IMG/VR virus record: IMGVR_UViG_3300046008_000478
Location: 15,246-79,245 of that record
Source: a virus
Direction: 5' to 3' (one strand)
DNA: 64,000 nt
Position numbers and translations under genes: made by a program. Numbering within the stretch: the stretch's first letter is position 1; each line of letters begins with the position of its first letter. Below are positions 16,892 through 54,000 of this stretch, in pieces. A model generated the notes under the pieces. It did no database searches, was not told the origin of the DNA, and saw only the letters and a list, made by a program, of their open reading frames with translations.

Positions 16892-16953
16892 CGTGAAAAT
16901 GATTGACCTCTGATGCGTACTCCATGGCACAATGTGCCAAAGGAGTGCGCACC

Positions 16954-35700: not shown

Positions 35701-38700
35701 GCAGCAGCACTGGAGAAGGAGTGCGGAATCCAGCTTCGACAAAGGGGGCTGGATCCACTGGATCTTCCGGAGCCACTCAGCTCGATGGTAATGAAGCTAC
35801 TGTCGCAAGAAACGCAGAGCTCCTAGCTCGGGTACGAAGCGCTATTGAGGGGCTGCGCGCTCGGTATCAGGCGCAGCTCTCCGTCGCAAGTACCGATGCG
35901 GAGCGTAAAAAACTCCTGCACGAAATATCTCGACTCCCCGATGTAAACGACCCTAGTGGAGAGTTGCTTCAGGGGTACTCAAATGTTGCCTCTGCATGGG
36001 AGCGCGCTTTTGGTCAATCCGTTGGTGCTTATGTAGACGGAAGGTCGTCGGCAGACGATGGCTTCCAGATGGGAAGCGATGCACTCGTAAACCTGCTTAA
36101 CCAACAGATGCCATTGCAGTGGACGATGGCCCATGAATTCAAGCACTTGAGCGAGTTTGTGCCGAGCCTGAAGAAGCTGTACGACAGAATTTTCAGCCTC
36201 ATCCCACAGGGTGCGCGGTCAGAATACCTTAGCTATCTGCACCGTACAGGCCAGGCGTCCACCAAATCTCTCGATGCGGCCACTGCCGCGGATATCGCCA
36301 AGCTGCGCCAAGAGATGGTTGCAGACTTCCTTGGGCAGCGCTTTACCGACAAGGCTTGGCTTGAGCAGCTTGCAAAGCAAAAGCCAAATCTTTTTGGTGA
36401 GTTTGTCCGCGACTGGTTGAGCATACTCAACAACGCCATACACGAGCTTATTTCCGCACTGTCAAAGGGGAATAACCCAAAAGACATTGACCGACTGATG
36501 CTGGGTCATCTGAAGCAGCTCCAGGAGATGAAACTACTGGCGGTTGATGTGGCTACAGAGTGGGCAGAGCGCAACCCAAGGATGTCAAAGAGCACAGGCG
36601 CAAGCGAAATACTGCATAGCTCCCGCATCGACTCCATCAACGAGCTCGGCAACCTCAACCTGGACGCCATGTCTATCGATGAAGACCTGGACATGGTCGA
36701 GTTCCTGAAGGCGCAGGCGGAGTTTGATGCACAGCGGCCAGCAGCCAAGGTCGATCCCAAGCGCGGCGGGCCGGTGCAGCCGCGCGCGGATATTGCCGAT
36801 GCCGAGATCCAGGCGCATGGCCTGGCGGCCGAGGATGCTTATGGCGACGCGACCTGGGTGCATACCCACAAGTCAGCCGTCATGCTGAACACCACGGCCC
36901 GCAACCTGTACAAGCAGGGCGACGAGTCCCGCATCGATCTGCTGCAAGAGCAAGACGGCAAGTGGGGCACCGAGGGTGGCATCCGCGGCACCTGGGTCGG
37001 CAATGACGGCATGTCTACCGGCGGAACTACCAGCCTGAAGATGGCTCAGAAATTCGTCAGCCGATTCATTGCGTCCAAGGATTTATTCGCACGCAAATTT
37101 GACATTGCGCAGACTTACTCCAGCGCATCCAGGGCCAACCTGCTGAATGCCTGGAATGCCTTGAACAAGATGGATGGCGTGCGCAAGTATGCCAAGGCCG
37201 ACAAGACAGCCATGTCCATGAAGGACATCGCGACCCAGTTGGGTGTGACGAAGTTCTATGACGTGTCCACCTTCACTGAGCGCCAAAGCCCAACCGAATC
37301 ATTCCTGATGGTTGAATTCACCAACAAGGAGACGAGCGAAACCCAAGAAGCCAACCTGACCATCGAGAAGGATGGCGACCAGCGCTTTGCCACCGCCCAC
37401 ACCGGAGCATTGAACCGCAACGGACTGGGCGGCGCCTTCTACCAGATGGCTGTGGAGTACGCTGCACGCAACCGGCTGGTGATTCGGCCTGATGATTCGC
37501 TGTCTGGCGTGAACACCTACCGGCGCACCGAGCAGATGCTGGCGTCCGCTATGCGCTCGGGAAAGTCCAACATCATGGTTCCGCATTCGGTGCAGCGGGT
37601 CTACGGATTCCAGAACGATGCCAAGACGCAAGATGAGCACGATGACAACGTAGTGCGCTTGCTGCTGGCCGGGCTGCGCAACGCACGCGAGCTGGCGCCT
37701 GAGATGGGGCTGCTGAACTACCACCCTGAAACCGACACCTTCACCCTGAAGAATGGGAAAGATGCGACCGGAATTGTGGATCGCATGCTGGCCAACGAGG
37801 ATGCTCGTGCATTTGGCCTGGGCCGCAGTACCCTGGCGCGCGCCGTGCTGACAGAGATGGCATTGCTTGGGCAGTTGGACGTCAAGTCCATCCAGTCCAT
37901 CGGAACCCCGCTCTTGTACAGCGCCCGCGAGGATGCTGAGCTGGAATACAAGCTGGTCGAGGACCAGTACAAGGGCACGCCTCAGTGGATGAAGGCGCCA
38001 GATGGCAGCCAGACACAGCTCACCCAGCGCCAATGGGTGCAGGTGCGCACGCCTCAATTCAAGGAATGGTTTGGCGACTGGGAAAAAGCCCATGCTACCG
38101 GCGGCGTCTGGGCAACAAAAGAAGATGTGTCCAAGGTCGTGGGCTCAGATGGTGAGCCTCTGGTGGTTTACCACGGGACCGACAAGGGCGGATTCATGGC
38201 GTTCAACCAGCCCGGCGGCACCAAGCGCGGCGACCTGGGAGTCTTCACGACCAGCAATGAAGGCATGGCTCGCAGCTATGTCCGCAAGGGTCGGCCGCAG
38301 GATATGACGCCACCAGTTGGGCTAGGCGACCTGGAGGAAATTGGCTACGCTTTTGAGCAAGGATTCCGGATCGATGGTGACTTCTACGATAGCGAAGAGG
38401 AGGCTCGCGATGCGGCGCAAGAGGGGGATGTGATTGCTCCAGCTGTGCGCGCCATGGATATTGATGGCTATTTTATAGATGGGCCACGGGAGACTGGTCA
38501 TTTCTTTGCAACCATGGACGATGCGGTGGAAGAGGCGCTTGGCTTGTACGACGGAGCAACCGGAATCTCCACAATTTACGCCGCCTTCGCCAACATCCGC
38601 CACCCAAATGAGACCAATTTTGAAGGCGCACTCTGGGGTGGCGAGCGACCAGAGCAGTACGTTGTATCGATTGATGGGGATCTGCAGTCGCGCGCGGATG

Positions 38701-41700
38701 GTAAGCAATACTTCACCCGAGAAGAGGCCGAGGCGTTCGCCAAAGAGCATCCCAACCCACTCTACCAGGATGACGATGGCAGTGACTACATCGAGCCAGC
38801 TCAAGACCACTACCAAACCACCGACGACGCAGTGCGCGAAGGCCTGAAGCATGGCCACGACGGCACGATCATTCGCGAGGTTATTGATGACGGCGGCGGA
38901 ATTGGCTACGACGACATGCCTTCCGATGTGTTTGTGGCCAACAAGCCAGAGCAGTTGAAGTCGGCAGACTGGAACACGGGTGAGTTTGGATCGTCGGATG
39001 ACCTGCGGTACAGCGAGAGACTCATCGAAGCATCGTCAGCGCAGCACCAAATGGAGATCGAAAGGGAGGAGAGGGAGATTGCCGCCACCACTCGATTGTC
39101 TGCCGCAGAGCAGAGCTCCATCGCCATCGAGGCTGAACTCATTGGCATACCAAAAAGCAAGCTTGAGCTTGAGGTGCGTCGTATTAAGGCGCAGTTCCCA
39201 GCATCTGCGGGCTGGGCGCCCATGGAATTCGACAAGATCAATAAAGCCGAGTACGCCAAGAGGGGCGTCCTGATAATGCGCACTGTCGAGTTCAAGAAAC
39301 AGCCTTACGATTTCCATCTTGGGCGCGATGGAAAGGACGACACGTCTACACACAACAAGCGGGTGACGTCAGTTGCCAAAGGCATAAGTGACGAGATTAT
39401 TGGACTGTCCAACAAGGCTAAACAAGGTGACAAGAACGCGCAAATCACCATGGACCAGATTGGCTGGTACAGCAAGGTAGCCGCCATGTTGCACCATCAG
39501 TTTGGCGGCTTCGCAGACTTCCTTGCTCAGCTCATGGGGCCAACCAGCGCCAATACGCCAGTGGAGGGCAATGTCAAGTACGCTATGTCCGCACTCAAGT
39601 CGGCAATGTCTGGCAAGTGGGATGGCCTCATCGCGGACACAATACGCTGGAATGAAGGCGTCATGCAAGCGGCTGCCGGATTGGATGCGGTGATCGATGC
39701 TAATCGCGCAAAACCCAAGGCAGAGCGCCTGACCGGGAAAGCTTTAGCTCAGACCGTGGAGTTCAAGGATGCCATGGCAGTAGTTGCAGCGGCCGCACCC
39801 TATCAAGGAGAGGTGCCACAGCAAGATAGCGGAGCTAAATTCGGCATGGCCACCCAGGGTGTTGTAGAAATACTGGCTGGCATTTGGAGTGACTTCCAGC
39901 GCGGTGATGCACCCAAGACCAAGAACTACTACCAAAACCTGATTGGCCGCCAGTTCACCGGCGCCACCATCGACGTCTGGGCGGCGCGCACGCTGCGCAG
40001 AATGGCTGGATTGCTGCGCCTGCCAACGTCGGCAGAGAAGGGCGTCGCTGGCAACATTGGGGCCAAGCTAACCCCGGGCGCGGAGTTTGGCTTCGGGCAG
40101 GAGGCGTTTGTTAAGGCTGCTGAAAACCTGCGCAACTCAGGCATTGAGGAATTTGCCAACACCACGCCGGCTGATGTGCAGGCGATGATTTGGTTTAGCG
40201 AGAAAGAGAGTTGGGCTCGCAGCAACTGGACCACCAAAATTGGCGAAGGCGGCTCTGCTGAAGCAGAATTCAATCTCCAGGGCAATGCCGATCGAGATGG
40301 ACTGGAGGATGCGCGTAGGATGGCTCGCAAGGGACTGCCTCACACCGGAAGCACCAAGCCAAACAAGACGGAGGAGGGCGCCCAACAAGCATCCATCAAT
40401 GCTGGCGTGGGGCAATTCCCATCCGCCCGCGAAACCCCTCAGTACAAAGAACGCCTGGCGAAAATCATCGCCAAGGCGGTGCGCGCCCGCAATGAAGCCC
40501 GCGTGCAGTTTGAGTCCATGCGCGGCGCAGCCGACCGCTGGATTGCTGGGGTGACCCCGGCCACGGACTTCACGCCAACGGACGCCACCATGGCCGAGGT
40601 TGGCGCAGAGCTGGAGTCAAAGGTTGCCATGGGCGAAGATGCCCACAAGGTCTTGGCATTCAAAGCGCTGCCGACCATGGGTCGTTACGGCTATGACGAG
40701 CGCTCCATTGACTTCGAGGGCGTCACCCGCCAAGGCTACAACGGCGTCGATATGCTGAAGCCGCTGCTTGAATTAGCCAAGGACAAGGCGCAGGATGGCC
40801 TGCTGTTTGGACGCGTCTTGCGCGCGGATGAGGATATCGACTACCTGCGGCACCGCCCTGGCCTTGAACTCTATCTGGCTAAAGGCACAACGATGGAGAA
40901 GGCGCAGCCACTGCTGGACAAGCTCACGGAACTTGGCTTCCAGCAGTTCACATTCGTGGTGGATCCAGTGCGGACCCCGGGCGCCTTATCCGGCAAGATG
41001 GGGGATGTTGTTGGCCTGCGCTACATCTTCACTCCGGAATTTGCGTTGCGCGAACCCAACCCTGAGTACGGCGGCGACCAGACTTGGGCGCCTGGAGCCT
41101 TGACCGATGACCAGATCCGGGGCAGAATGTTAGCGAAGGCTGATGAGCTGCATGGCCTCTCTGATGACCTACAAATGATTGCAGGCGTTTCCTCTGTTGA
41201 GAGGCGCCATTACGAGGCTAATGTTTATTTTTGGGGTGATTATGACAACGCAATTGCAAGACTTGGAGCGAGGGCTGGAAATAGTGACTCGGAAAAATCA
41301 TGGAGCGGACAGCCCTTACGCTCAGGGCTTGAGGGCGCAGATCGCCGCCGCGAAATGGACTCAGGCTCAGAAGACGCAAAGTCCTTCGCAGCTCGAAGAG
41401 ACGTACTTCGGGGGGACTCGGAGCCAGCCTTCAGCCGCCGGGACGAGGGATATAGCGGACGGGATGGAGCGGATGGCTCGGTCTCGATTAAAGGAGCTGT
41501 CCACTACGGACGGCAAGCAGGCCTAAGCGTACTGTCCGGGTCCTCTAGTGGGACCGGAATCAAAGGCGCAGAGCAAGACCGCTTGAGTGCACCAGGAGTA
41601 GACCCCCGCATCAAGCGCCGGGTCTATTTTTACATCCCAACATCAGTCGGAATTCCCCAGTCAGAGATTGGACTTGGGGCGCACGTCTACATGGCAGACC

Positions 41701-42974
41701 TGGACGGCCTGTACAACCCGCACACCACCACCAAACCTATTGCCAAGTCCGGCAATGCGCTCGAAACGGCTGTGCTGGATGCTGGATACAAGGGATATGT
41801 AAACCCAGAGCAGGGATCCATTGTGGTGCTGGACCAGGATGTTCCAGTGAGGTACGCTGGCATTAGCTCGCAGCACGCCATTACTCCGCGCGTGGTGCAG
41901 CGGGTGCAGCAGCGCATCATGACTCGCCTGGAGCGCTCCGAGCTGGTGCGCAAGCCGGTCGGCAACGAGATGCTGCAAATCATCGGGGCACGCGCGGCCA
42001 TCGATGCCGCGGCCCCATCGTTCAAGCTGCAGTATGGGGATGCCCGGGTAAATCAGGATGAATCTGCTGCGGCAGATGGCGCCCTGGCCTCCGCCGGGTC
42101 GACCTTTCAGTTTGGCGAGGCGCGCTACAGTGCCCGCGACCTGGGCTTCTACTCTGAGCTGTCAGCCCAAATGGACAAGGCCACCATGAAGCAGGCCCCG
42201 GCCGGAGCATGGAAGTCGTTCATCGGCGCCCTGGCCCAGAAGGGTGTAAAGAAGGATGAGGTCGAGTGGACCGGCATCAATGACTTCCTGGATCTCCAGG
42301 AGGGCAAAGTGTCCAAGGAGCAGATCCAGGAATACCTGCGCGGCAATGGCGTACAGGTGGAGGAGGTTGTGCTCGGAGATGAGCCGGCAATCAAGACAGT
42401 TGAGGCTGCCAAGAAGTATCTGCTTGAAAGATTCAAGGAAGATCCGGAAGAGCGCTATGGGTACAGTGATGATGCGGACTACATCTCAATCGCCAATGAG
42501 TGGCAGCTTGGAGACACTGGCCCCAACAGCGTATCAAAGTACCACCAGTACACCCTGCCTGGTGGCGAGAACTACCGCGAGGTGTTGCTGACGCTGCCTC
42601 GTGAAGATGATAAGACCAAGTCCGCGAAGGCTGCATTTGAAGAAGCCAAAAAGAAATTTGATACAGATGGGTCGCAGCCCAACTACTTCAATCTGAAGAT
42701 GGCAGAGATGGATCTATCAAGCGCCCAGCGTAACGTTGGGGGAGCGTACAAATCAAGCCATTGGGACCAGAAGAACGTCCTTGCCCACATCCGCCTGAAT
42801 GACCGCACCGATTCGACAGGAGCTCGCGTACTTTTTGTAGAAGAAGCGCAGAGCGATTTTCAGCAGGACTACCGCAAGTCAAAAGAAGCAGTTTCCAAGG
42901 CTGTTGAAAGTGACTTCAATGGGATAATTGAGCGCATGAAAAAGGCTGGTGTTTTGGAGGTGAATTGTGATTAA
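32739..42974 (+). CDS. Giant polyvalent ejection protein, part 1 (glucosaminidase, membrane region, InPase, zincin, ART-like and other domains)
   Basis: LETGWG...NNLGNIK...GYAEDP; EAGNY.K...DGDKVDVF...FDEHK; AHEFKH; FKEWFGDW...VVYHGT; TIDVWAAR. Confidence 0.85.
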   Translation: MSILDNTAIEQQLLAMGEKKSAGDAPAAPRSDSAASGPQAFVQRYADLAATTGAKLGVAPEVLLGQWGLETGWGKSIIPGTNNLGNIKGKNGPMATDNQTGSRDSYRAYKDDADFGNGFTAFIGNSERYQGALNSGADAGAYFSALKKGGYAEDPAYVQKGVSATRLASQFLGGRALPAGQVSATEAPTEAPQYHWGAQDGPTRTVATKPASFAEKAADTAISLGSGLLGGAKSLTDVFGADNSASQFLGEQSKNVDGYTSDERKAERAASQEKIKQAELYGSAWDEIKANISAFADAPIDIVVGAVGSSAPTLLSMFIPGLGQTAAARLVMGGIMGAAQGTGAGKGSIYEAVENKLLESGIDQDTAKKTAAAAQAYDGQNGGMIAANGIMGTIAGLTGVEGSLAKILGKKVAEGAAEKAAPGLIKTFAKGIAQESPIEGAQGGLERVSGNVALQNQGYDTPTFQGAAGQAAMESLASAPMGGGFALLSRNGQPAGPITPPNPLEEAAKAPGAVLSRAAIAPDDIAQRAHEIEGELKDSGGMQALRSIGAQHVAPFLEALSIAKDKRLPAAARQEALDTINLGMQWMADGKTADQPGNGSPFSTSLVTQSAPTQPGTDLATTAGGALTNPGMPQAFDPNTIDGEVTRVDNMLDGPKALPAPPGPALTNQTTQTPAPAGVSTSAPQEITNVTQAPQSKQAAQEGQEAPAAATPAVDTARTQVSAPKVSIPTGKGTAQSRKRRAQLDAMVVSGFDTVERRDDGFYLINHKSNEEMRLDGMGDAQTARVAIKFKMDADSHVAPSSPLNDKKAPSEAQIEAGNYHKPVTSINGFKVRIENPNGSTRSGTSPDGKKWSSTMAAHYGELEGTLGADGDKVDVFIGSRPDSDKIYVIDQKNKDGSFDEHKVMMGYQSLEAAKAGYLANYEKGWTGMGAVTEMGVAEFKAWVKSQEALKPVAYTDPKTTGVENDERGSDAAGAGLDTQSEGITGVSSSTGEGVRNPASTKGAGSTGSSGATQLDGNEATVARNAELLARVRSAIEGLRARYQAQLSVASTDAERKKLLHEISRLPDVNDPSGELLQGYSNVASAWERAFGQSVGAYVDGRSSADDGFQMGSDALVNLLNQQMPLQWTMAHEFKHLSEFVPSLKKLYDRIFSLIPQGARSEYLSYLHRTGQASTKSLDAATAADIAKLRQEMVADFLGQRFTDKAWLEQLAKQKPNLFGEFVRDWLSILNNAIHELISALSKGNNPKDIDRLMLGHLKQLQEMKLLAVDVATEWAERNPRMSKSTGASEILHSSRIDSINELGNLNLDAMSIDEDLDMVEFLKAQAEFDAQRPAAKVDPKRGGPVQPRADIADAEIQAHGLAAEDAYGDATWVHTHKSAVMLNTTARNLYKQGDESRIDLLQEQDGKWGTEGGIRGTWVGNDGMSTGGTTSLKMAQKFVSRFIASKDLFARKFDIAQTYSSASRANLLNAWNALNKMDGVRKYAKADKTAMSMKDIATQLGVTKFYDVSTFTERQSPTESFLMVEFTNKETSETQEANLTIEKDGDQRFATAHTGALNRNGLGGAFYQMAVEYAARNRLVIRPDDSLSGVNTYRRTEQMLASAMRSGKSNIMVPHSVQRVYGFQNDAKTQDEHDDNVVRLLLAGLRNARELAPEMGLLNYHPETDTFTLKNGKDATGIVDRMLANEDARAFGLGRSTLARAVLTEMALLGQLDVKSIQSIGTPLLYSAREDAELEYKLVEDQYKGTPQWMKAPDGSQTQLTQRQWVQVRTPQFKEWFGDWEKAHATGGVWATKEDVSKVVGSDGEPLVVYHGTDKGGFMAFNQPGGTKRGDLGVFTTSNEGMARSYVRKGRPQDMTPPVGLGDLEEIGYAFEQGFRIDGDFYDSEEEARDAAQEGDVIAPAVRAMDIDGYFIDGPRETGHFFATMDDAVEEALGLYDGATGISTIYAAFANIRHPNETNFEGALWGGERPEQYVVSIDGDLQSRADGKQYFTREEAEAFAKEHPNPLYQDDDGSDYIEPAQDHYQTTDDAVREGLKHGHDGTIIREVIDDGGGIGYDDMPSDVFVANKPEQLKSADWNTGEFGSSDDLRYSERLIEASSAQHQMEIEREEREIAATTRLSAAEQSSIAIEAELIGIPKSKLELEVRRIKAQFPASAGWAPMEFDKINKAEYAKRGVLIMRTVEFKKQPYDFHLGRDGKDDTSTHNKRVTSVAKGISDEIIGLSNKAKQGDKNAQITMDQIGWYSKVAAMLHHQFGGFADFLAQLMGPTSANTPVEGNVKYAMSALKSAMSGKWDGLIADTIRWNEGVMQAAAGLDAVIDANRAKPKAERLTGKALAQTVEFKDAMAVVAAAAPYQGEVPQQDSGAKFGMATQGVVEILAGIWSDFQRGDAPKTKNYYQNLIGRQFTGATIDVWAARTLRRMAGLLRLPTSAEKGVAGNIGAKLTPGAEFGFGQEAFVKAAENLRNSGIEEFANTTPADVQAMIWFSEKESWARSNWTTKIGEGGSAEAEFNLQGNADRDGLEDARRMARKGLPHTGSTKPNKTEEGAQQASINAGVGQFPSARETPQYKERLAKIIAKAVRARNEARVQFESMRGAADRWIAGVTPATDFTPTDATMAEVGAELESKVAMGEDAHKVLAFKALPTMGRYGYDERSIDFEGVTRQGYNGVDMLKPLLELAKDKAQDGLLFGRVLRADEDIDYLRHRPGLELYLAKGTTMEKAQPLLDKLTELGFQQFTFVVDPVRTPGALSGKMGDVVGLRYIFTPEFALREPNPEYGGDQTWAPGALTDDQIRGRMLAKADELHGLSDDLQMIAGVSSVERRHYEANVYFWGDYDNAIARLGARAGNSDSEKSWSGQPLRSGLEGADRRREMDSGSEDAKSFAARRDVLRGDSEPAFSRRDEGYSGRDGADGSVSIKGAVHYGRQAGLSVLSGSSSGTGIKGAEQDRLSAPGVDPRIKRRVYFYIPTSVGIPQSEIGLGAHVYMADLDGLYNPHTTTKPIAKSGNALETAVLDAGYKGYVNPEQGSIVVLDQDVPVRYAGISSQHAITPRVVQRVQQRIMTRLERSELVRKPVGNEMLQIIGARAAIDAAAPSFKLQYGDARVNQDESAAADGALASAGSTFQFGEARYSARDLGFYSELSAQMDKATMKQAPAGAWKSFIGALAQKGVKKDEVEWTGINDFLDLQEGKVSKEQIQEYLRGNGVQVEEVVLGDEPAIKTVEAAKKYLLERFKEDPEERYGYSDDADYISIANEWQLGDTGPNSVSKYHQYTLPGGENYREVLLTLPREDDKTKSAKAAFEEAKKKFDTDGSQPNYFNLKMAEMDLSSAQRNVGGAYKSSHWDQKNVLAHIRLNDRTDSTGARVLFVEEAQSDFQQDYRKSKEAVSKAVESDFNGIIERMKKAGVLEVNCD

Positions 42975-43647
42975 AAAGTTCTTTGTCTACCAGCACAAAA
43001 CAGCAGACACCTTGACGGTTTTCTATATTGGGAAAGGGTCGCTAAAAAAAGGTGGCTTTGATAGGGCGTATGTTTCAAAGAAGCGCAGTAAATTCTGGCA
43101 GGCCATTGTTGCAAAGCATGGTCTTGTTGTTGAAATTCTTGATTCATTCGACACAGAGCAAGAGGCTTTTGAATCAGAGCGCCAGTTAATCTCCTTGCAC
43201 AAGCGCCGATCTGACGGAGGGACATTGTGCAATATGACTCTCGGCGGAGATGGTCACTTGGGATTAACAGCATCGCCAGAAGCAAGGGCCAAACTTAGCG
43301 CCGCATTGTCTGGCGAGAAGCATCCGAACTGGGGCAAGAAACTATCAGCAGAAACGTGCCGCAGAAAGTCCGAGTCGCTAAAGGCCAGTCCCCACAATCT
43401 CAAGGGAAAGAAGTTGCCTGATTGGTGGAAGTCTCGTATTGCTGCAACGAAGGTTGGCGAACTCAATCCTATGTATGGCAAGACCGGGTCTGCGAATCCA
43501 AACAGTCGCAAGGTGCGCGATGCTGGAACTGGCCGCATTTATGACAGTGTTCTTATTGCAGCTGATGCCAATGGCTACAAAATGAAAACACTTTACAACT
43601 GGCTATCAGGTCACCGACCAAACCCAACCTCACTGGAGTTCGCATAA
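42967..43647 (+). CDS. GIY-YIG-type homing endonuclease with NUMOD3 repeats
   Basis: FVYQH...FYIGKG..R; NMTLGGDG; HPNWGKK and NPMYGK; AT-richer than flanks. Confidence 0.85.
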   Translation: MIKKFFVYQHKTADTLTVFYIGKGSLKKGGFDRAYVSKKRSKFWQAIVAKHGLVVEILDSFDTEQEAFESERQLISLHKRRSDGGTLCNMTLGGDGHLGLTASPEARAKLSAALSGEKHPNWGKKLSAETCRRKSESLKASPHNLKGKKLPDWWKSRIAATKVGELNPMYGKTGSANPNSRKVRDAGTGRIYDSVLIAADANGYKMKTLYNWLSGHRPNPTSLEFA

Positions 43648-44702
43648 TGGCCTGCCAATACACCTACAAAGGAAGCACCTATGAAGCGTGGGAGTTTGAG
43701 GACGTCTTAAAGGCAATGTCACCATCTGAGGCCTCCGCCTTCATTCCTGGAGTGAAGTCAGTTCCAGATGCTCCATTCACCCAGAACACGCAAGGCTGGC
43801 TGAACCTGGCACTCAAGCGCGTCATGAAGCTGGCGGTGGATGGAGGCTACGACAAGGTGGCATTCGTGAATGGCGAGCAGTCTGCGGATCGGTACAGCCT
43901 ATCTAAGTCCGTCGCAAAAGTTGATTGGTACAAAGCGCAAAGCGAGTACGGCACAAGGATTGTCGAGATCGAAACCACGGCGGATGATACGGCCATGCTG
44001 TATGTTGATGATGCCGGATTGATTGTTAGGGTTGGCTCGCGTACCGCCGCCTTGAAGCAGCTTCAGGGTCGCCAGCTAGACGAGGCGCTCGGAAAGGACT
44101 TTGCTAACAAGGTCTTGTCAGAAGACGATGGCAGCTCCAGCGGGGATGGACTGAACATCGGCGGCGAAGGCATGAAGACCTTCTACAACTCCATCGTGCC
44201 CAATGCCGCCAAGGCCTTACTGAAGAAGCTGGGTGGCGGGCAGATGGAGTTCGTCAAAGGCATGACGGCCGACAAGCAAGGCTGGCACATCACCGACCCA
44301 TCCAACACCACCACCGGTAAGTGGATGCTCAAGAGCAGCGACTACAACTCAAAAGGTTTGCACTTTGACACTGAAGCCGCGGCCAAGGAGGCGCTTGCAG
44401 AAAAGCAAGTGAAGCTCAGTCAGCCAGGATTCACCATCACCGACGCCATGCGCGAGAAGGTGGGCAACGGAATGCCACTGTTCAGCATGCGTGACACCCA
44501 GGCGCTGGATGCGGAGCAAGCCCACCAGGACGACGCTCCGGCTACTCCAAAGGCCAGGAAGTACGCCGGCGCCAAGGTGGACATCCAGGTGAAAATTGAG
44601 GACACGGGCGAGGTGGCAACCCTTAGAATGGATGTACACCAAACGATTGACGACTTTGATAGCCGTCAAGCAAACATGCAGACGCTGCTGGATTGCCTGT
44701 AA
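43647..44702 (+). CDS. Giant ejection protein, part 2
   Basis: VPDAPF...W..LALKR...GYD.VA...GEQ.ADRY continues the domain ending part 1. Confidence 0.85.
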   Translation: MACQYTYKGSTYEAWEFEDVLKAMSPSEASAFIPGVKSVPDAPFTQNTQGWLNLALKRVMKLAVDGGYDKVAFVNGEQSADRYSLSKSVAKVDWYKAQSEYGTRIVEIETTADDTAMLYVDDAGLIVRVGSRTAALKQLQGRQLDEALGKDFANKVLSEDDGSSSGDGLNIGGEGMKTFYNSIVPNAAKALLKKLGGGQMEFVKGMTADKQGWHITDPSNTTTGKWMLKSSDYNSKGLHFDTEAAAKEALAEKQVKLSQPGFTITDAMREKVGNGMPLFSMRDTQALDAEQAHQDDAPATPKARKYAGAKVDIQVKIEDTGEVATLRMDVHQTIDDFDSRQANMQTLLDCL

Positions 44703-45151
44703 TGAAAATTGTCAAGTCGACCGAAGACCTCAAGCGCATGGCCCTCGCCCGGGGTGCTAGCGCCAGCTTCGGCGGTGCAAAGTTCAACAGCACCGAGGAC
44801 CGGGTGAGCTCCAGGCCCATCAAGCCTGAGCCCAAACCAGAGCCTGCCCCAGAGCCACCCAAGGAAAAGCCGCCAGAGCCACGCATTGAGCAACCCAAGG
44901 CAGTTGACCTGGCGCCCATCGTTCAGGCTGCTGTGGATGCTATGGCGGCCAGCGTGAGCGACATTGCCAAGGACAACGCCCGGGTGATGCAGGAAGTCAT
45001 GAAGGCGGTGGAGCGAATAACTGCAGCGCCTCCCGCAGCCACGACCATCACCTCTACCGTGCCAGAGATGACGGCCAAAGCCTGGCAGCTCAAAGTGAAT
45101 CGCGATACCCGCGGGTTCATGGACACAGTCGATATCAAACAAATCGGATAA
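44702..45151 (+). CDS. Pro-rich protein ending W.LKVNRD..G (first gene of the inserted cassette)
   Basis: TAATG coupling; PEP repeats. Confidence 0.7.
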   Translation: MKIVKSTEDLKRMALARGASASFGGAKFNSTEDRVSSRPIKPEPKPEPAPEPPKEKPPEPRIEQPKAVDLAPIVQAAVDAMAASVSDIAKDNARVMQEVMKAVERITAAPPAATTITSTVPEMTAKAWQLKVNRDTRGFMDTVDIKQIG

Positions 45152-45160
45152 GGAGCAACC

Positions 45161-45370
45161 ATGCAAACAGTTTCCGGGTCACTGACCCTACTCAACGCCC
45201 ACACGGACGCACCACAGGTTTACTGGAATGGAGCCAAGGTCGAAGGCATCACCGCCATCGCCATTGCAAACGGCGGGGGAATGCATCGTGTTGTACTGAC
45301 CCTGCCCGAAGACCCAATCCTTGCTGAGATGCAAGCGGCTGGTATCACCATCAAACGGAGTGCAGTATGA
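45161..45370 (+). CDS. Hypothetical protein
   Basis: RBS AAGGAG. Confidence 0.7.
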   Translation: MQTVSGSLTLLNAHTDAPQVYWNGAKVEGITAIAIANGGGMHRVVLTLPEDPILAEMQAAGITIKRSAV

Positions 45371-45597
45371 GCGGCGAATTCCTTTTCATCCTGCCTACGG
45401 GCTGGGAGCAGATTGTTCCTGCGGACGTTGACATGATTGAAGGCGGCTTGTCTACCTGTCGCGCTCACATCAGCGGCGGTCAGATGGGTGACTTGACCGC
45501 CTTGTTCATTGCCAGTGGACGCTTCACGGCCCCTACCTACATTGACGAGGCCAAGCTGCTGAATGACGATATTCTGGTTGTGCATACGGTGACGTAA
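45367..45597 (+). CDS. Hypothetical protein
   Basis: ATGA overlap. Confidence 0.65.
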   Translation: MSGEFLFILPTGWEQIVPADVDMIEGGLSTCRAHISGGQMGDLTALFIASGRFTAPTYIDEAKLLNDDILVVHTVT

Positions 45598-45600
45598 TCA

Positions 45601-48186
45601 GTGACTGCCTACACGATCAGCAACGGGGGGCTCAATTACTTTGATGCCCAAACTGCCCCAAGCCTTAACGCGACATTAGACACCTACACAATTTCTGCGG
45701 GTAGTACCCTTGTTTGTCGCACCGATACCTACGCCTGCGCCAATCACTCGATAGCGGGTGGTTCGCTGGACACGGTGACATTCACCGGGCAGGGTGGCGA
45801 ACTTCGCTTTGACCCCACCTATGTGCGCGAGATTGACTACACAGGCGGTAGCGGTAACTCGCCCGCCTACGGTGCGGCAGTCAGCCAAGGCGGTGTAAGC
45901 GGTGTGTTCTTGGGGTGCTGGGCCAACTGGCAGAGCGACCCCGCTGTGGCTGGTGTAGCCATTCCAGCTACCGGAAAAATGAAGATTGGCGGAGTGACTG
46001 GCGGGGCTTTTGCTGCCGGTGCGCTGACGGGCATCGCCGCAACTTGCTCCGGTGCAGACAAGCAATCGTGGATCGAAATCAAAGGCCCCGACACAGCCAC
46101 CATCACAGTGCCGCGTATCGGCAAGGTCACCAGTGTTGAGGCGTGGTACGAGCTTGGCACCACCACTGGTGTGCGCGGTCAGATCATCCCTTGCCCCACC
46201 ACCGTCACGGTTGCAGGCGTTTGGCCGGGTGTGTGGATTGAGACTGCGGCAGGCTCTGGGGTCTATGACCGCTATGCCGGTGTGGGTTCGCAGGCTGCTT
46301 TGGCGACTACCCGCACCACGGCTGAAATGAAGATCATTTGGCAGACCACCGCAGGCATTCGTATTGGCAACGATGGCACTAACGGTGTCGGCTACCTGCC
46401 TGTCACGGGCTGCAAGGTGCGCATTCCAGCCACTATCCTGACCAACTGCACCCGCGTGGTGGGTGGATCAGGGCCAAGGGTGCTACCCAATGCCACGATT
46501 GCCACACGGCAGGAGCTGGTGACTACCGGAGCGGGTTACTTTGATCTGCGCAATCTGGTGTGCCAGTGGTACATGAACTTCAGCCAACCGTTCTATGTCA
46601 AGTATTTGAACTGCGCGGTATCGGATTCGATGATCTTGTCGGAGGTGGCATCACCGCTGGATGTGGACAACTGCATCGTGGGTGTGACTCAGGCACAGAG
46701 CAACTTCGCCCTGAATGTGGCTTCATGCTTCGCTGGCGGGGCTATCAAGAACAGCCTGTTTGGTCGGTTTGCAATGGCGGCATCGGGCAACTACGTGGCT
46801 TCGTTGGCCTACATCACTGGTGTGGCTTTCAGCAGCAACACACTGTTGTCTGCTACCTTGCGCGGCAATGCCAGCACGGGTGTAATTAACTCAACCCAGT
46901 TGGTGAACTGCACGTTTACCAACGAGACTTGGATTGGTGGACGCGGTTACTTCGTTGGCCCGCAGCGTTGTACCTTCAACAACACGACATACTACGACCA
47001 CACGATAACCACCACGACAACGGCGACCAACCCAATGTACGCGCTGGACTTCGCCATCGGAGGCTCTGGTAATGTGGTGAACGGTTTTGCAATGCCGCAA
47101 CCCAACTTCGGCCCATACAGCGGCTTGGTGTCAGTCAATGCTTGCTACACCACGCTGATCAAGAACATCGGCACGGACTACGACACGCCGCTGGTGATGA
47201 ATGCTGCGGTGACAGGCGTAGGTGTAAACGGTGTTGGTAACAATGACGGCATCACGATCAAACGGATGTACCTGAGCAACACCCGGTCAGGGCCGTATGC
47301 GTTCGTCAACTCGGACACCAATGTGCTGATTGAGAACATTTCAGGCGATGCGGCTGACACTTCAGTGGTGGCTGGATTGAACGTGCTGGTGAAGAATGCA
47401 CAGCTCACCGGAGCAACAACGGGTCAAGTGTCGGTCTATGGGTCACACTGGCTGACACGCTACACCAGCGCCACGGCTGGTTTCACGGAGATTCTGTGCA
47501 ATGAGCCAACCAGCTCCAGTGCAGCGCAGTGCTTTGCATCCGGTGGATTGCCACAGTTCAACTCCAGCGGATCGGTGCTGCTGACCAAGGTGGGCGACTC
47601 GGTGACTTGGGAAATGCCGTTCTTCGCAGTGGGCTACACCGCGTTCACCAACGGCGCACCCACTATTACCGGCACGAACGTGACCTTTGGCACACGATGG
47701 GGAAATCACGACATTGAATTCCAAGTGGACACCGGCACAGGCTACGGTGGCACATGGCTGAACCTGACTGCTGCCAACCTGATTACCAAGACGTTCACCA
47801 GTACGGCAGGTTTCAAGCTCAAGGTGCGAGCCACTTGTGCGATTGCTGCGGCCACCAACGTCATTACGAATATGCGCGTAGCCATGACCACCACGGCCAG
47901 TGCCCGCAAGGGGACGCTGTACCCGCTGTCGGTCAACACCATCACGTTCACAGGCTTACCCACTGGCACGGATGCAGTGGTGCTGACTGCTGGGACTTCT
48001 ACGGTGCTGGCAAGTGTGGATGCAGGAGTAGGCACCACGTTCAGCTACCAGTACGAGGGAACACCAACCGTGGATGTTGGCTTTATTCAACCCGGCTATG
48101 TACCTCTGTACATCCGGGGACTTGCACTCACCAGTGTGGATTCGTCCATCCCTGTATCGCTTTCAATTGACAGAAATTACGTCTAG
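45601..48186 (+). CDS. Large beta-helix/fibre-like structural protein
   Basis: T/G/N-rich beta repeats; C-terminal DRNY. Confidence 0.7.
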   Translation: MTAYTISNGGLNYFDAQTAPSLNATLDTYTISAGSTLVCRTDTYACANHSIAGGSLDTVTFTGQGGELRFDPTYVREIDYTGGSGNSPAYGAAVSQGGVSGVFLGCWANWQSDPAVAGVAIPATGKMKIGGVTGGAFAAGALTGIAATCSGADKQSWIEIKGPDTATITVPRIGKVTSVEAWYELGTTTGVRGQIIPCPTTVTVAGVWPGVWIETAAGSGVYDRYAGVGSQAALATTRTTAEMKIIWQTTAGIRIGNDGTNGVGYLPVTGCKVRIPATILTNCTRVVGGSGPRVLPNATIATRQELVTTGAGYFDLRNLVCQWYMNFSQPFYVKYLNCAVSDSMILSEVASPLDVDNCIVGVTQAQSNFALNVASCFAGGAIKNSLFGRFAMAASGNYVASLAYITGVAFSSNTLLSATLRGNASTGVINSTQLVNCTFTNETWIGGRGYFVGPQRCTFNNTTYYDHTITTTTTATNPMYALDFAIGGSGNVVNGFAMPQPNFGPYSGLVSVNACYTTLIKNIGTDYDTPLVMNAAVTGVGVNGVGNNDGITIKRMYLSNTRSGPYAFVNSDTNVLIENISGDAADTSVVAGLNVLVKNAQLTGATTGQVSVYGSHWLTRYTSATAGFTEILCNEPTSSSAAQCFASGGLPQFNSSGSVLLTKVGDSVTWEMPFFAVGYTAFTNGAPTITGTNVTFGTRWGNHDIEFQVDTGTGYGGTWLNLTAANLITKTFTSTAGFKLKVRATCAIAAATNVITNMRVAMTTTASARKGTLYPLSVNTITFTGLPTGTDAVVLTAGTSTVLASVDAGVGTTFSYQYEGTPTVDVGFIQPGYVPLYIRGLALTSVDSSIPVSLSIDRNYV

Positions 48187-48194
48187 GAATCATC

Positions 48195-48950
48195 ATGGGC
48201 CACTTACTGCTTCCATCGTCTGAAACGCCTATGTGCGTATACACGGTAACCAATACTTTAAGCGGCAAGACGTATGTTGGTCAGACGACAAAGCTGGCTG
48301 GTGACCGCTGGTACAAGCACGTATGGAATAAAGAAGGGTCTGCAATAAGTGCAGCAATCAACAAATACGGGGTCGATAATTTTGAATTTGCAGTTATCGA
48401 CAACGCTGAAAATATTGACCAGTTAAATCACAAAGAGGACTTCTGGGTAAAGAGGCTGAACACGCTATCACCGTTTGGGTACAACTTGTTGCACGGCGGG
48501 AAAAACAGAATACCGTCTGAAGAAACACGGAAGAAGCAATCTGCATCAAAGCGTGGTAAGCCGTCAGTCCCTGAGCATGTTGAGAAGCGCACCATCGCAC
48601 TCCGCGCATATCACGCGGCGTTGCCAAAGACGCCAAAGCCTCCAAAGGTGTACGTTGACAGGAAGTCGCCTGAGTATCGCGCAAAGATGTCTGCCGCCAA
48701 GATGGGCACCCGCATAACTCATAGGTCAATCAATGCCACAAACCGGACAGGTAAGTCAGGCGTTTTCTTTAGAGAGAACCATGGGCCTTCTGGTGCATTC
48801 TCCGCCCACGCAATGGTGGACGGGGAACTGAAGTCTAAAACATTTGGTTGCATGAAGCGCGGAAAAGACGAGGCGTTTCGACTCGCCTGCCAGTGGCGAG
48901 TAGCAATGGAACAGATCAACGGATTAACTGTAATCGGAGAAGCTAAATGA
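48195..48950 (+). CDS. GIY-YIG homing endonuclease with NUMOD3 and AP2-like domains
   Basis: VYTVTN..SGKTYVGQT; AINKYG..NF; GYNL..GG; N.TG.SGV. Confidence 0.85.
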   Translation: MGHLLLPSSETPMCVYTVTNTLSGKTYVGQTTKLAGDRWYKHVWNKEGSAISAAINKYGVDNFEFAVIDNAENIDQLNHKEDFWVKRLNTLSPFGYNLLHGGKNRIPSEETRKKQSASKRGKPSVPEHVEKRTIALRAYHAALPKTPKPPKVYVDRKSPEYRAKMSAAKMGTRITHRSINATNRTGKSGVFFRENHGPSGAFSAHAMVDGELKSKTFGCMKRGKDEAFRLACQWRVAMEQINGLTVIGEAK

Positions 48951-50338
48951 AAATCACCTCACAAGCTGGCTTGATAGTCGGCACCAATCTGACTATTGAT
49001 GAGCCGGGGCGCATCATCACGTTGAACGCCGGAGGCTCGTTGGTAGCCAAGGATGGCGTGTCATGGCAGGCGCTGTACTCCAAGCTGGTGAGCTTGTGGG
49101 CCACCTCCACTTACCAAGACAGTCCATTCCCCGCTTATGCGATTGATGCGTTGTCGGGCCAGTTCCAAATTGGTACAGACGGAAGTTCGTACAGTGGCTG
49201 GAAGTTTTCCGATGTGGACTCGGACGCAACCCGAAATATGCTGCGTGACGGTGGCTGGTCTGAATACTCTGCTGCGGGTGTTTTGCTTCAGCAGTACGCT
49301 GGCTTCATCGGCTTGGGTGGCATCACCCCAGCAACGACTGTGCAGCCGTACTACCACTTGGGTGCAACCGACGCGCCCATCAACTTCCCATTCACTGACC
49401 AGTTCAATGTGGGTGTGCGGGTGTTTGGCGATGCGTCACATGGCAGCTTGGATAAGCGCACCTACGCCAAAGCCTTTGCCCGTGAGTACGGCAAGAAGTT
49501 CAAATCCTCCATCTTGGCTGATACGGGTGCGACAGCTACCGGCGCGAACAAGGTCAACTTCTTGGTGTCCAATGAGGATGACTTGAAGATCACCGGCTTG
49601 CTGGGTGCTGTGCAGGCGACAGCGGATACCGCCATGTCTGGCGCTCCTTACTCTGGCATCACAGTGGCCTACTACACGCTGAACCAGACGCGCAGCATTG
49701 CAGGCACGAACCGCGACTTCAAGATCATCATCAACGGCAATAGCGGGACGCTGGAGCAGATTTATGCCAAGGTGCAGTACATGCTGCGCCAAGGGACTGA
49801 CATCAATACAGGCGGTACGGCTGGCACAAAGACGGGCAAGATTCAGGATGAGCTGCTCAAGTTCGTGGGCGACACCTTGGTCACTTCGCAATCCGTATTT
49901 ATTGACAACGTACTCTCCGCGGACAGCAACCGGGTTGAATTCTACGACGACACAAACACCCTACGGGTCAACAACTACACCGCATCCGGTGAGATGACGT
50001 TCAATGGGGTGCTGGTGGGTGCTGGATCGAGCTACCGCCTGATGTTCACCTCGCCAACGGGCGCAGGCAACGACTACGGTGAGGCTGGTGCTGTCACGGT
50101 CAACAACGCCGCAGGAACACCCATTACGGGAACCATCAGCGCAGCGTCCATCGCGTTCGACTTCGATTGGAATGGCAACGTGCAGGCTGGCTACTCTGGC
50201 GCTACCACGCGACCCGTCACCTTGATAGGGATTCGACCAGGCTACGGCAAGTTTGCAGTTGGCACAGGGACTATCACGCAGTCCAAGGGCATTAGCTTGT
50301 CATTGGTGGCTGAGCAAGACCGTGTTTACGCCGCATAA
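48947..50338 (+). CDS. Structural protein (cassette)
   Basis: QALYS.L..LW N-terminal domain; C-terminal DRVY. Confidence 0.7.
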   Translation: MKITSQAGLIVGTNLTIDEPGRIITLNAGGSLVAKDGVSWQALYSKLVSLWATSTYQDSPFPAYAIDALSGQFQIGTDGSSYSGWKFSDVDSDATRNMLRDGGWSEYSAAGVLLQQYAGFIGLGGITPATTVQPYYHLGATDAPINFPFTDQFNVGVRVFGDASHGSLDKRTYAKAFAREYGKKFKSSILADTGATATGANKVNFLVSNEDDLKITGLLGAVQATADTAMSGAPYSGITVAYYTLNQTRSIAGTNRDFKIIINGNSGTLEQIYAKVQYMLRQGTDINTGGTAGTKTGKIQDELLKFVGDTLVTSQSVFIDNVLSADSNRVEFYDDTNTLRVNNYTASGEMTFNGVLVGAGSSYRLMFTSPTGAGNDYGEAGAVTVNNAAGTPITGTISAASIAFDFDWNGNVQAGYSGATTRPVTLIGIRPGYGKFAVGTGTITQSKGISLSLVAEQDRVYAA

Positions 50339-50341
50339 CCC

Positions 50342-50848
50342 ATGCCCATCGCGTTCGACCCCGCTACGCAGCGCGTCATTCTTGACAGCGCCAGCGTAAC
50401 CGCGACCCAGATTTACAGCCGGTGGGCTGATTGGATTGCCACCGGAGACAACGCCAAGTACCTGCCAGCCTTCCGCACTGCCGGGGGTGATGACTTGGGT
50501 TCTGGCTTGTCCATCCCGCCTTACTACTTTTTGGCAAACGGCTGGAAGGTTCGCCCAATGGAGTCCAGCCACAACCTCACGATCACGGGAAACCTGTTTG
50601 TGGACGGCGGCGGGGTTCCAGTGGTATCCACCCTTGGGGTGTATCAGGTCAATGTGAACTACACCGTGCCTGTGCAGGCGCAGGGCATCAGCACCAGCGG
50701 ATCGAGTGGCCCAACAGCGACCGAGATCGCAGCGGCGGTTATCGCGGGCCTCATGGCTACCACCATCCCAGTGAATATGGCCAAGGTCAACGGGCAGGCG
50801 CTGGCGGGCGCGGGAACAGAAGCCAGCCCATGGGGGCCGGGGGCTTAA
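50342..50848 (+). CDS. Structural protein, paralogous N-domain to the upstream gene
   Basis: QIYSRW.DW; C-terminal VN..KVNG....G.GTE.SPW.P. Confidence 0.7.
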   Translation: MPIAFDPATQRVILDSASVTATQIYSRWADWIATGDNAKYLPAFRTAGGDDLGSGLSIPPYYFLANGWKVRPMESSHNLTITGNLFVDGGGVPVVSTLGVYQVNVNYTVPVQAQGISTSGSSGPTATEIAAAVIAGLMATTIPVNMAKVNGQALAGAGTEASPWGPGA

Positions 50849-51088
50849 ATGGCAAGCGCATGGGGTAAGAGCTGGGGCGCGGCGTTTGGCGTTGCATTCG
50901 GCCTGGCAGTCGCAACTCCACCAACTCCGGCCCCTGCAGCCCCGGTCGCGCAGATTGGTGGCGGCGGAACCTCGCTGGCAGACTGGGAGCGCGAGCTTGA
51001 CCTGCAGCGCCATAAACAGATTCAGGCAGAAGACGAAATTATTGTCACCGCGATTGCACAGATGATCGCCAACGGAGCATTCGGATGA
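50849..51088 (+). CDS. Small protein (WG.SWG..FG N-terminus, EDEII C-terminus)
   Basis: ATGA overlap with the next gene. Confidence 0.65.
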   Translation: MASAWGKSWGAAFGVAFGLAVATPPTPAPAAPVAQIGGGGTSLADWERELDLQRHKQIQAEDEIIVTAIAQMIANGAFG

Positions 51089-54000
51089 CCACAAAATGTA
51101 TGGAAATCGTCAACAAGATGGCGGACGAGGACCAGGATTCCTTGCTGGCTAAGCTTGAGCAGTACCAAAAGATTGGCGTGCCCGCGAGCAAAGCTCAGAA
51201 GATGGCTGCCAAGGACATGCTGGAGGAGCTCAAGGGTGAGCGCGCTGATTTCATGAAGGCCGTGGAGGAGCAGCACCCGGAGCCAGATCCAGTTGCATCC
51301 AGCGGCCAGTTCGATGCCTCGAACCCAGACATCCGCCACAGTACCCGCGAGGAGATCGCCGCCGGGGCCGACGCCATCAAGGCAATGTCCGATTCGGTGC
51401 GTGACAACCTGGAGCCGGCCAAGGCCCCGGGCGGGTGGCACGCCTATGTACTGTACGAGGCGCGCAAGATCCTGCCTAAGCCATCGGACAAGCTGAAGAA
51501 GCTGACCGAGCGAAACTCATTCATTGCGCACCAGGACAATGAGTACCTGGCCAACGTCGATGGCTCCTACTACGGCGTCAACAAGTGGGAAGATCCGGAT
51601 GCAACCGGGCACGAGGAGGATGGTAAGGAGCCATTCGTGTTTGCGTTCCACTCGCTTGAGGACGGTGGGTATAACACCACAAACTCAATGGAGAGTGACG
51701 TCGGTGAGTTGATGGCCGCTATTCGCAAGAGCAAGCAGGGGCTGAAGCTTAGCGCGCGAGATGACGGACTAAACTCGAACAAGTCCAAGTCTTTTGATGT
51801 AGTTGTAGACCGTGGCGACCCCGACACCAAGGCTGATGCTAATGTCCATGGCGCTGGCGCCGCTCGCGAACATCTCAGGGAGTCCTTGCATTCTTTCGGC
51901 AACCTTCTTGTGAGCGAGTGGGAGGAGGCTTCGGTACTTGAGGGCGGTGTAGATGGACTGGTGAGTGACGCCAAGCTGCTTTCCGATATACACAATGCTC
52001 CGACCTTCATTAAGCATGGCTACAGCGGACTCAATGCTCCACTTCAGAGGATGGTGCTCCATGCGGTGGGTCGAGCTCTCCATAATGGCGAGGTTCTCGA
52101 TGCTGTTGTTCAGTCTATCCCCGTCGATGTGGTGGACATCCTCTCCAGGGAGAAGCTTACGACCAATGGATTGCTCCATGACATATCGATGCTCAAGTGG
52201 GTTCAATCCGTCGACGGCAATTTGGCGGTATCCACCCTTATTGATGTGGCCGCCAGTGCGGTATCCGGCGTTCCTGCACTCGAACGAGCAAAAAGTTCTG
52301 GCGCCAGGCTTGATGAGGGATCGGTATTTTTGAAAAATAATTCCGCAGGTGATGCAAGTGCAGGTGACTTTGGTGGACATGTTTTTGATTCCAGTGATGT
52401 TGAGTATTCCATGCGGAGCGGGACTTCTACATGGGATATGTATGAAAACACAGTTTTCGACAATGTTATCTACAAATTACAGAATCGTCAAATCGATGTG
52501 AAGCGCGTCATCGAGTCCATTGCCAAATTCACAGGCAAAGTCGCGGATGACCTGAATGTCTACCTGCAAGAGGAGTTGTTCCATGGCCGGGCCGCCAAGC
52601 GCGTAACGGACTTTGCCCGCATGGAACTGCAGCCGATGATCGAAGCCATCCGCAAGGCCGGCTACGAGCTCTCCGATGTGGAGGAATACCTGCACGCGCG
52701 CCACGCCAAAGAGGCCAATGCGGTTATCGCAACCCGCAACCCTGGAGATCCAGGCATGGCGGACGGTGGATCCGGCATGACCAACCAGGCGGCCGACGAT
52801 TACATGGCCAACCTGACTCCAGAGAATGCCCGCAAGCTGGGCGCCATTGCAGCCCAGGTTGACGCAATCACCAACACGACCCGCCAGATGTATGTGGACT
52901 ATGGCCTGGAGTCGCAAGACACGGTAGATAGCTGGAAGAGTTTGTTCCAGCACTACATCCCGCTGCAGCGCGAAGACAAGGATGGCAAGGGCGGAATGGG
53001 CATCGGCCAGGGCTTTAGCGTCAAGGGCAAAGAAACCCGCGGGCGCACCGGATCCAAGCGCAAGGTGGTGGATATCCTGGCCAACATTGCCATGCAGCGC
53101 GAGCGGCTGGTGGTGCGTGGCGAGAAGAACCGTGTCTCCAATGCATTGGTGGGCCTGGCCATTGCCAACCCCAACCCAGAGTTTTGGAGCGTTGGCTCGC
53201 CCCCGACTGAGCGGGTGTACGACCCCAAGACTGATACCGTGGTGGATCGGGTGGACCCTATGTTCAAGAGCCGCGAGAACGTCATGGTGGCCAAGGTGCT
53301 ACAGCCAGACGGGTCCGTCAAAGAGGTGGCTGTGATCTTCAACGAAGATGATGCGCGCGCGGTGCGCATGGCTGCAGCCCTGAAGAACCTGGATGCCGGC
53401 GACCTGGAGGGGCTCTGGGGTGTGAGCGCCAAAATCACGCGCTACTTCTCCGCCATCAACACCCAGTACAACCCAGTGTTCGGTGTTGTCAACTTGATCC
53501 GCGACGTGCAGGCGGCACTGATTAACCTGGACACCACCGTCTTGGCCAACAAGAAGGGGCGCATCGCCAAGGATACTGCGTCAGCACTGGCCGGCATCTA
53601 CCAGGATATGCGCGCCGAGCGTAAGGGTCAGCACCCAACTTCCAGGTGGTCCGTTCTATGGGAGGAGTTCCAGCACGAAGGTGGGCAGACCGGCTTCCGC
53701 CAGATGTTCGCAACTAGCGCCGACCGGGCGGACGAGCTCAAAGGAATTCTCAACCCTGACGCCTGGATGGATAGCAAGCTGGGCAAGATCTTCACCGCCA
53801 ACGGCGCACTGCGCGTACCGCTATCTAAAGCCAAAGAGGGCGCGGCCGTGATCTTTGATTGGCTGAGCGACTACAACGAATCGATGGAGAATGCGGTGCG
53901 CTTGGCATCTTACAAGGCAGCCACCGACCAGGGCATGAGCAAGCAAGAGGCCGCCAGCCTGGCCAAGAACCTGACCGTAAACTTCAACCGCAAAGGGCAG

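Follow-up and report, generated by a model that had tools for sequence, protein, structure and literature searches.

A short peptide motif, [YFHL]-S-x-R, recurs along the giant polyvalent ejection protein encoded in a 64,000-nucleotide stretch of phage DNA (IMG/VR virus record IMGVR_UViG_3300046008_000478, positions 15,246 to 79,245; hereafter the window), where, by the alignments assembled here, it forms the conserved C-terminus of each of the effector modules. Across about 150 uncultured relatives the motif accompanies a single family of embedded zincin-type metallopeptidase, the HEFKH family, and sequence comparison suggests that modules carry their C-terminal motif with them when they are inherited or exchanged. 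We lean, if only somewhat, toward the reading that the motif is a candidate recognition and cleavage site of the embedded zincin, inherited with each module.

A recurrent motif at module ends

Polyvalent proteins are believed to act ahead of all other phage proteins in the infected cell, and a polyvalent chain would deliver anti-restriction, ADP-ribosylating and wall-degrading activities together. An initial reading of the window, made from the letters alone (the sequence-only reading), had placed the motif in a polyprotein. The window encodes three separate open reading frames (ORFs), A, C and I, two of which share a frame while the third lies in another, but the single chain does exist in the homologs P0007 (4793 amino acids) and P0009 (4183 amino acids), which carry the entire array, glucosaminidase through LPD38; A, C and I therefore represent one polyvalent protein split in three. 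The Pfam domains of A and I comprise several unrelated enzymatic activities, as expected of this class, and the position of the genes indicates that the three products are probably packaged and delivered into the host. The motif-bearing ORFs, the zincin and the motif copies are as follows (HSP, high-scoring segment pair; pLDDT, predicted local distance difference test).

ORF A: 32739..42974, + strand, 3411 amino acids, part 1 of the split polyvalent ejection protein
ORF C: 43647..44702, + strand, 351 amino acids, part 2 of the polyvalent protein
ORF I: 51085..55122, + strand, 1345 amino acids, part 3, with LPD38 at residues 1041-1231 (Pfam, 1e-41)
HEFKH zincin (predicted): 35856..36608, + strand, A residues ~1040-1290
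HSSR: 36615..36626, + strand, A 1293-1296, 9 residues past the zincin domain end, predicted helical
YSAR: 37917..37928, + strand, A 1727-1730, LPD37 module tail, where HSP starts cluster
YSER: 39009..39020, + strand, A 2091-2094, ART-PolyVal module tail, where HSP ends pile up at +1 to +4
FSRR: 41430..41441, + strand, A 2898-2901, disordered linker with pLDDT < 50
YSGR: 41451..41462, + strand, A 2905-2908, end of the disordered linker preceding the second ART-like domain
YSAR: 42126..42137, + strand, A 3130-3133, coil linking the second ART-like domain to the next module
FSMR: 44481-44492, + strand, C 279-282, with HSP ends at +0 to +3
HSTR: 51337-51348, + strand, ORF I, residue 85
LSAR: 51748-51759, + strand, ORF I, residue 222
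YSMR: 52405-52416, + strand, ORF I, residue 441

Nine of these copies, five in A, one in C and three in I, had been listed with coordinates in the sequence-only reading, and all nine translate exactly where it placed them; the tenth, YSGR at 41451 (A residue 2905), is added here. The motif is commoner in A, C and I than in shuffled sequence: 3000 shuffles, made protein by protein, give an expectation of 2.63 copies where ten are present (p = 3e-4), and the extended form [YFHL]SxR[DE] occurs seven times against 0.35 expected, a count that no shuffle attained. The remaining ORFs of the window (15,611 amino acids) show no enrichment, with 10 copies observed and 11.3 expected. Locally the consensus is [D/P]-[I/V]-[R/L]-[Y/F/H/L]-S-x-R-[D/E], with alanine at x in its extended version, and in the wider family it is [F/Y]-S-x-[R/K]-[Q/D/E].

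Conservation singles out the serine and arginine. In an alignment of ten sequences at 38-42% identity, these two residues are near-invariant amid variable flanks at four A sites (positions 1294/1296, 1727-1730, 2090-2092 and 3131/3133), and at site 1727 P1724, L1726, Y1727, S1728 and R1730 are all nearly invariant. A tri-residue scan of zincin-bearing relatives, made with no prior definition of the motif, returned YS.R, FS.R and SAR among its top enriched patterns.

The sequence-only reading had suggested mapping domain breakpoints among relatives, and the boundaries of homology do cluster at the motif. BLAST searches with A, C and I against subjects below 70% identity, drawn from more than 200 relatives, placed 272 of 1038 HSP endpoints (26%) within 10 residues of a motif serine, against 3.8% expected, and homology blocks end or start at A 1727, 2091, 2898/2905 and 3130, at C279 and at I441. 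Upstream homology usually stops one to four residues after the aromatic residue (+1 to +4) and the next block begins 5-10 residues on; conservation in each module therefore finishes with the motif. AlphaFold models suggest a similar arrangement: in A 2860-3170 (pLDDT 81.7), sites 2898 and 2905 fall in a low-confidence stretch (pLDDT < 50) whose last residue is R2908, and 3130 lies in a coil joining two domains. Sites 2898, 2905 and 3130 are thus predicted to lie in low-confidence or coil linkers abutting folded domains, and hence to be accessible. A recurrent consensus in accessible inter-domain linkers, as a cleavage site would need, is accordingly seen except at the predicted-helical site 1293, and the sequence-only description of copies "between recognisable domains" stands for most sites, on BLAST block ends and AlphaFold linkers.

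Individual modules illustrate the association. The ART-PolyVal module ends in a tail, QIKSA..GN.G.FD..NPDIR[FY]S.R, that extends past the end of the Pfam model (seen in P0007, with A site 2091 placed by analogy); a GNAT module in P0007 is flanked by two motif copies where P0009 has a single copy; and more than 40 relatives share the C tail GMPLFS. Residues 1-88 of I (51085-51350) comprise a helical N-terminal module of about 60 residues, which also opens a giant ORF in three related loci (L024, L007 and L026), followed by the tail G-Q-F-D-A-S-N-P-D-I-R-H-S-T-R. This tail normally follows ART-PolyVal, but no ART domain is present at I residues 1-88, which suggests that the tail is portable.

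Codon usage at the motif points to shared descent. The sequence-only reading had counted AGY serine codons in eight of nine copies; we confirm this count, which becomes nine of ten with the additional site, against 37% of serine codons in these genes (p = 0.002 for the excess at the window's motif sites). Beyond the window, as tested on loci from viral contigs, AGY encodes the serine at 79 of 89 unique motif sites in distant loci (89%, against a background of 42%; p = 5e-20), and the motif phenylalanine is TTC in 78% of cases against 53%, while the lysine, arginine and glutamine codons of the motif (the basic and Q/D/E positions) match background usage. A change between AGY and TCN serine codons takes two substitutions and passes through a non-serine codon, so the simplest reading of AGY retention is that the copies share descent under unbroken selection for serine, with modules that would travel with their own junctions. 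Such strong bias at non-orthologous sites is an unusual sign of junctions copied along with modules.

Polyvalent proteins that lack the HEFKH zincin show a different repetition: TPE, TP.F, PEF, FDP and G.FD are repeated three or more times in many of them, and TPE alone occurs 356 times against 79 expected, with 61 proteins holding three or more copies. These TPE-type patterns (..TDTPEFK.WFG..) may mark module starts, much as the motif marks module ends.

Two embedded zincin families and their junctions

The HExxH module of A reads MAHEFKH, beginning the HExxH at residue 1132, and H1132, E1133, H1136 and E1192 show no variation across three alignments (17, 41 and 63 sequences). Both the HExxH motif and a conserved downstream glutamate, the candidate third zinc ligand of a zincin, are thus present, and an AlphaFold model (pLDDT 86.6) places a three-stranded sheet (strands 90-93, 102-105 and 108-112 in model numbering) before the HExxH helix (120-132). 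The domain has no match to a Pfam model or, by sequence or profile, to the PDB; Foldseek returned no match at E <= 0.001, with weak rows that include BepA, PPEP-1 and M61, and the VIA-align list was taken up by matches to the C-terminal helical bundle. A motif copy stands 5-18 residues past the zincin domain in roughly two in five aligned relatives.

The motif and this zincin occur together. Among the first 120 homologs, those with the HExxH domain of A hold 108 motif copies against 32.8 expected, and the rest hold 287 against 259. A HMMER search with the zincin segment alone against 1.84 billion representatives found 107 proteins, 99 of them new, and in these 99 proteins [YF]S.[RK][DEQN] is enriched in all three divergence tiers (observed/expected 24/3.5 in the close, 35/6.4 in the middle and 52/7.5 in the far tier, or 5.5-6.9-fold), with control patterns (reversed, S-to-T and S-to-A) flat at about 1x. 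The same pattern occurs 68 times against 52.5 expected in polyvalent proteins without the HEFKH zincin. In 78 viral loci chosen by the A 2100-2870 module, the polyvalent ORFs hold 55 copies of [YFHL]S.R against 71 expected (0.77x), with no enrichment; this set at first looked like a refutation but, as its members mostly lack the HEFKH zincin, it became an informative negative control.

Distant loci localize the motif more narrowly. A locus search with a single zincin protein found no relative, but alignment-based scans succeeded, fetching by the zincin 50 distant viral loci at 25-34% identity. There the zincin ORFs hold 44 copies against 7.9 expected, the second giant ORF just downstream holds 70 against 5.2, and all other ORFs of at least 200 amino acids together hold 3 against 3.7. 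The motif is thus confined, in these sequences, to the zincin ORF and the neighbouring giant ORF, a distribution that would fit action in trans on partner proteins.

Some relatives carry a second HExxH family, VFGHE[FL]xHxLR, at the position of the HEFKH domain (P0015-P0057; L001, L007, L019, L020 and L024). In these relatives [ILV]R[KR][ST] is enriched (109 against 24.4 expected) and the aromatic form is not; the junction that accompanies this zincin has the flavour D-[IL]-R-[KR]-S-x-x-R, with an AGY serine at 8 of 11 sites. We compared homologous tails (A 1727, 2091 and 3130; I 441) between the groups. The residue preceding the serine is aromatic in 32 cases and basic in none in the HEFKH group, against 15 aromatic, 35 basic and 15 other in the other-zincin group (Fisher 1e-11, a value that overstates independence, as a quick InPase tree shows only one or two switches between zincin families). 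The site consensus therefore co-varies with the protease over the one or two switches that can be resolved. Tentatively, and at a little less than even odds in our estimation, the families would represent interchangeable protease-site pairs, in which the HEFKH zincin reads aromatic-Ser-x-Arg/Lys and the VFGHExxHxLR zincin reads Arg-Lys/Arg-Ser on the same tails, with modules as portable cassettes whose serine is frozen as AGC. If that is so, sequence alone would reveal how an entire class of injected anti-defence proteins is cut, and the boundaries of their cargo could be predicted. Two zincin-motif pairs would offer a natural test of protease-substrate co-evolution.

Candidate cleavage sites and competing explanations

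The sequence-only reading had proposed that the motif is a protease site releasing effector domains, a short homology used for cassette-like domain shuffling, or both. The protease proposal has gained indirectly from three observations, namely that the motif tracks one zincin family, that the residue before the serine switches with zincin type and that the tested sites lie in predicted linkers, while zincin binding, cleavage itself, the scissile bond and its timing are what we infer from sequence. The shuffling proposal survives in a weaker form, in which modules move with their C-terminal motif; the DNA common to the copies is approximately TTC-AGC, and about 6 nucleotides do not by themselves suffice as a recombination substrate. 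Under the mechanism that we propose, the zincin (A ~1040-1290) would cut its own giant chain into separate domains and would cut the zincin-less partners C and I in trans, either inside the capsid or after ejection. The degenerate aromatic residue or leucine followed by a small serine would fit a hydrophobic S1'-type pocket of the kind typical of zincins. Every module would be inherited and shuffled with its own copy of the site, which would explain both the homology blocks that end at the motif and the near-constant AGY serine codon.

Several observations weigh against cleavage by the embedded zincin. Tails in the other-zincin group are still aromatic in 15 of 65 cases, and one or two family switches are too few to separate the zincin-motif association from phylogeny. 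Boundaries near A residues 950, 2140 and 2870 lack the motif, as do the entire first 1290 residues of A, and site 1293 is predicted to lie within a confident helix. The PLFS tail of C is retained whichever zincin the relatives carry, so at least the C copy may be structural. The zincin assignment draws on the HExxH, the downstream glutamate and the predicted topology, and tblastn of the zincin segment found no match in a collection of 50,697 cultured-phage records.

The alternative that we take most seriously, though we consider it unlikely, is that the motif is a docking or handling peptide that is never cleaved and occurs once per module, for capsid packing, threading through the portal and tail or binding of a shared partner. 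Such a handle would account for the motif in giant proteins without a zincin (C and I here, and the second giant ORF in 35 distant loci), all probably packaged, for the PLFS copy that persists whatever the zincin family and for a site such as 1293 that is predicted to be ordered; however, a targeting signal is required once per protein and not at every module end, an aromatic-to-basic switch that tracks the zincin family has no obvious reason under it, and the three tested sites lie in predicted disordered linkers and not on a domain surface. The same switch bears on modification of the invariant serine, by ADP-ribosylation through the ART-PolyVal domains or by phosphorylation, as a means of regulating the modules. 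Although an invariant serine with a basic residue nearby, in proteins that mostly carry ART-PolyVal domains, is what such modification might use, the flanking residue co-varies with the zincin family and not with ART content, and the motif stands at module ends and not on domain surfaces; we regard this as improbable. Autoproteolysis at the serine through an N-O acyl shift (cf. the HFS motifs of Nup98 and ZU5) was considered and rejected, as the upstream domains are unrelated and the flanking residue tracks the zincin type.

Two further explanations concern the DNA and the pattern itself. The motif could be mainly a DNA-level feature, approximately TTC-AGC plus arginine or lysine codons, that promotes illegitimate recombination and yields the peptide as a by-product. 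The AGY bias here and in the distant loci, the preference for TTC, the homology blocks that end at the motif and the GNAT module of P0007 bracketed by two copies would all be expected of such a signal, but the other codons are at background, the x position varies and the identical DNA is very short. Moreover, proteins of 25-45% identity, whose synonymous sites are saturated, keep the peptide in equivalent places, and selection therefore acts on the protein; AGY retention is equally predicted by strict purifying selection on serine in copies of common descent. We accordingly give a DNA signal the same small probability as serine modification. That the copies arose by chance or composition from a loose four-residue pattern has a little in its favour, as the class [YFHL] was chosen after the fact and two or three of the ten copies, such as LSAR at I222, are expected anyway. 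The shuffles, which never matched the seven copies of the extended form, conservation at the same positions in relatives, recovery without prior definition and replication of the enrichment in two independent sequence sets with flat control patterns stand against it, and we regard chance as already refuted by the shuffles, the unbiased recovery and the independent replication.

Cleavage by the embedded zincin would place these proteins beside better-known systems. MARTX and large clostridial toxins are processed at inter-domain leucines by an embedded cysteine protease activated by inositol hexakisphosphate (InsP6), and their cleavage has been shown experimentally. Like the protein described here, they combine several effectors and their own protease in one delivered chain, and short degenerate linker sites release the effectors after delivery, a role that the motif would play in the phage protein; they differ in using a cysteine protease where a zincin is predicted here, in the site and in secretion as opposed to phage ejection. 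Prohead proteases offer another comparison, cutting at L/I-x-E in T4 (gp21) and at A/S/G-x-E in phiKZ and SPN3US. They too act at short consensus sites in proteins that are packaged in the capsid and ejected, but they are dedicated serine proteases that also mature the capsid. The ORFs scanned, a subset of all ORFs, yielded no prohead protease, and, unlike prohead-protease sites, the motif is not enriched in the other ORFs of the window and is absent from other virion proteins.

The closest precedent is the prediction that metallopeptidase (MPTase) domains process polyvalent proteins into units (Iyer, Burroughs, Anand, de Souza and Aravind, 2017; PMC5512222), made for the same kind of giant virion-delivered chain, with lysozyme, InPase, LPD37, ART-PolyVal and LPD38 around an HExxH metallopeptidase. 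The main text of that paper names no cleavage site or inter-domain motif, and our literature searches found no published description of the motif and no proteomics. To that text the present analysis adds the motif itself, the finding that it is restricted to one zincin family, and the alternative flavour that accompanies the second zincin. Processing by embedded metallopeptidases was thus already predicted in 2017, and the proposal of a site is the new element; together, the motif and a defined zincin family turn the earlier prediction into a testable claim, and the mature products of hundreds of giant proteins from uncultured phages would become predictable.

The split locus and its neighbouring genes

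The window represents the virion module of a phage genome of 79,245 bp on a single contig. Its polyvalent genes sit downstream of those for terminase, portal, virion structural and internal virion proteins, and it also includes several homing-endonuclease genes. Further features of ORF A and its 3' neighbour are listed here.

Glucosaminidase: A residues 47-161 (Pfam, 4e-18)
InPase: A residues 812-945 (Pfam, 3e-54)
LPD37: A residues 1471-1706 (Pfam, 2e-12)
ART-PolyVal: A, from residue 1804 (Pfam, 8e-12)
Second ART-like domain: A residues ~2920-3100
GIY-YIG homing-endonuclease gene: 42967..43647, + strand, between A and C (phrog_314, 8.6e-26)

Gene A had no megablast match in the phage and plasmid collections, tblastn of the InPase-to-ART region against phages gave single-domain matches only, and NCBIfam returned FlgJ-like matches for the N-terminal muramidase only. 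Between C and I lies a 6.4-kb block, in which ORFs of 861, 463 and 168 amino acids (45601-50848) match neither Pfam nor PHROG and lack the motif. The structural module has an unusually high density of homing-endonuclease genes, four in all (two HNH and two GIY-YIG), at 13560-14198, 16903-17763, 42967-43647 and 48195-48950.

The junction that holds the GIY-YIG gene is itself conserved (window 42940-43700). The first giant ORF ends in [VI]x[IV]NC[DK]*, here GVLEVNCD, and the next opens with M..C[TQ]Y[RT][FY], here MACQYTYKG, a boundary that is kept in about 30 distant loci (L084, L087-L092, L097 and L101-L128); the split between the giant ORFs is therefore old, and the GIY-YIG gene occupies a pre-existing junction. 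In some homologs, P0001 among them, the two sides of this boundary are fused, and in the distant loci its gap is filled by a gene for a ferritin-like protein of 163 amino acids (Pfam Ferritin, 4e-15) with no homing endonuclease.

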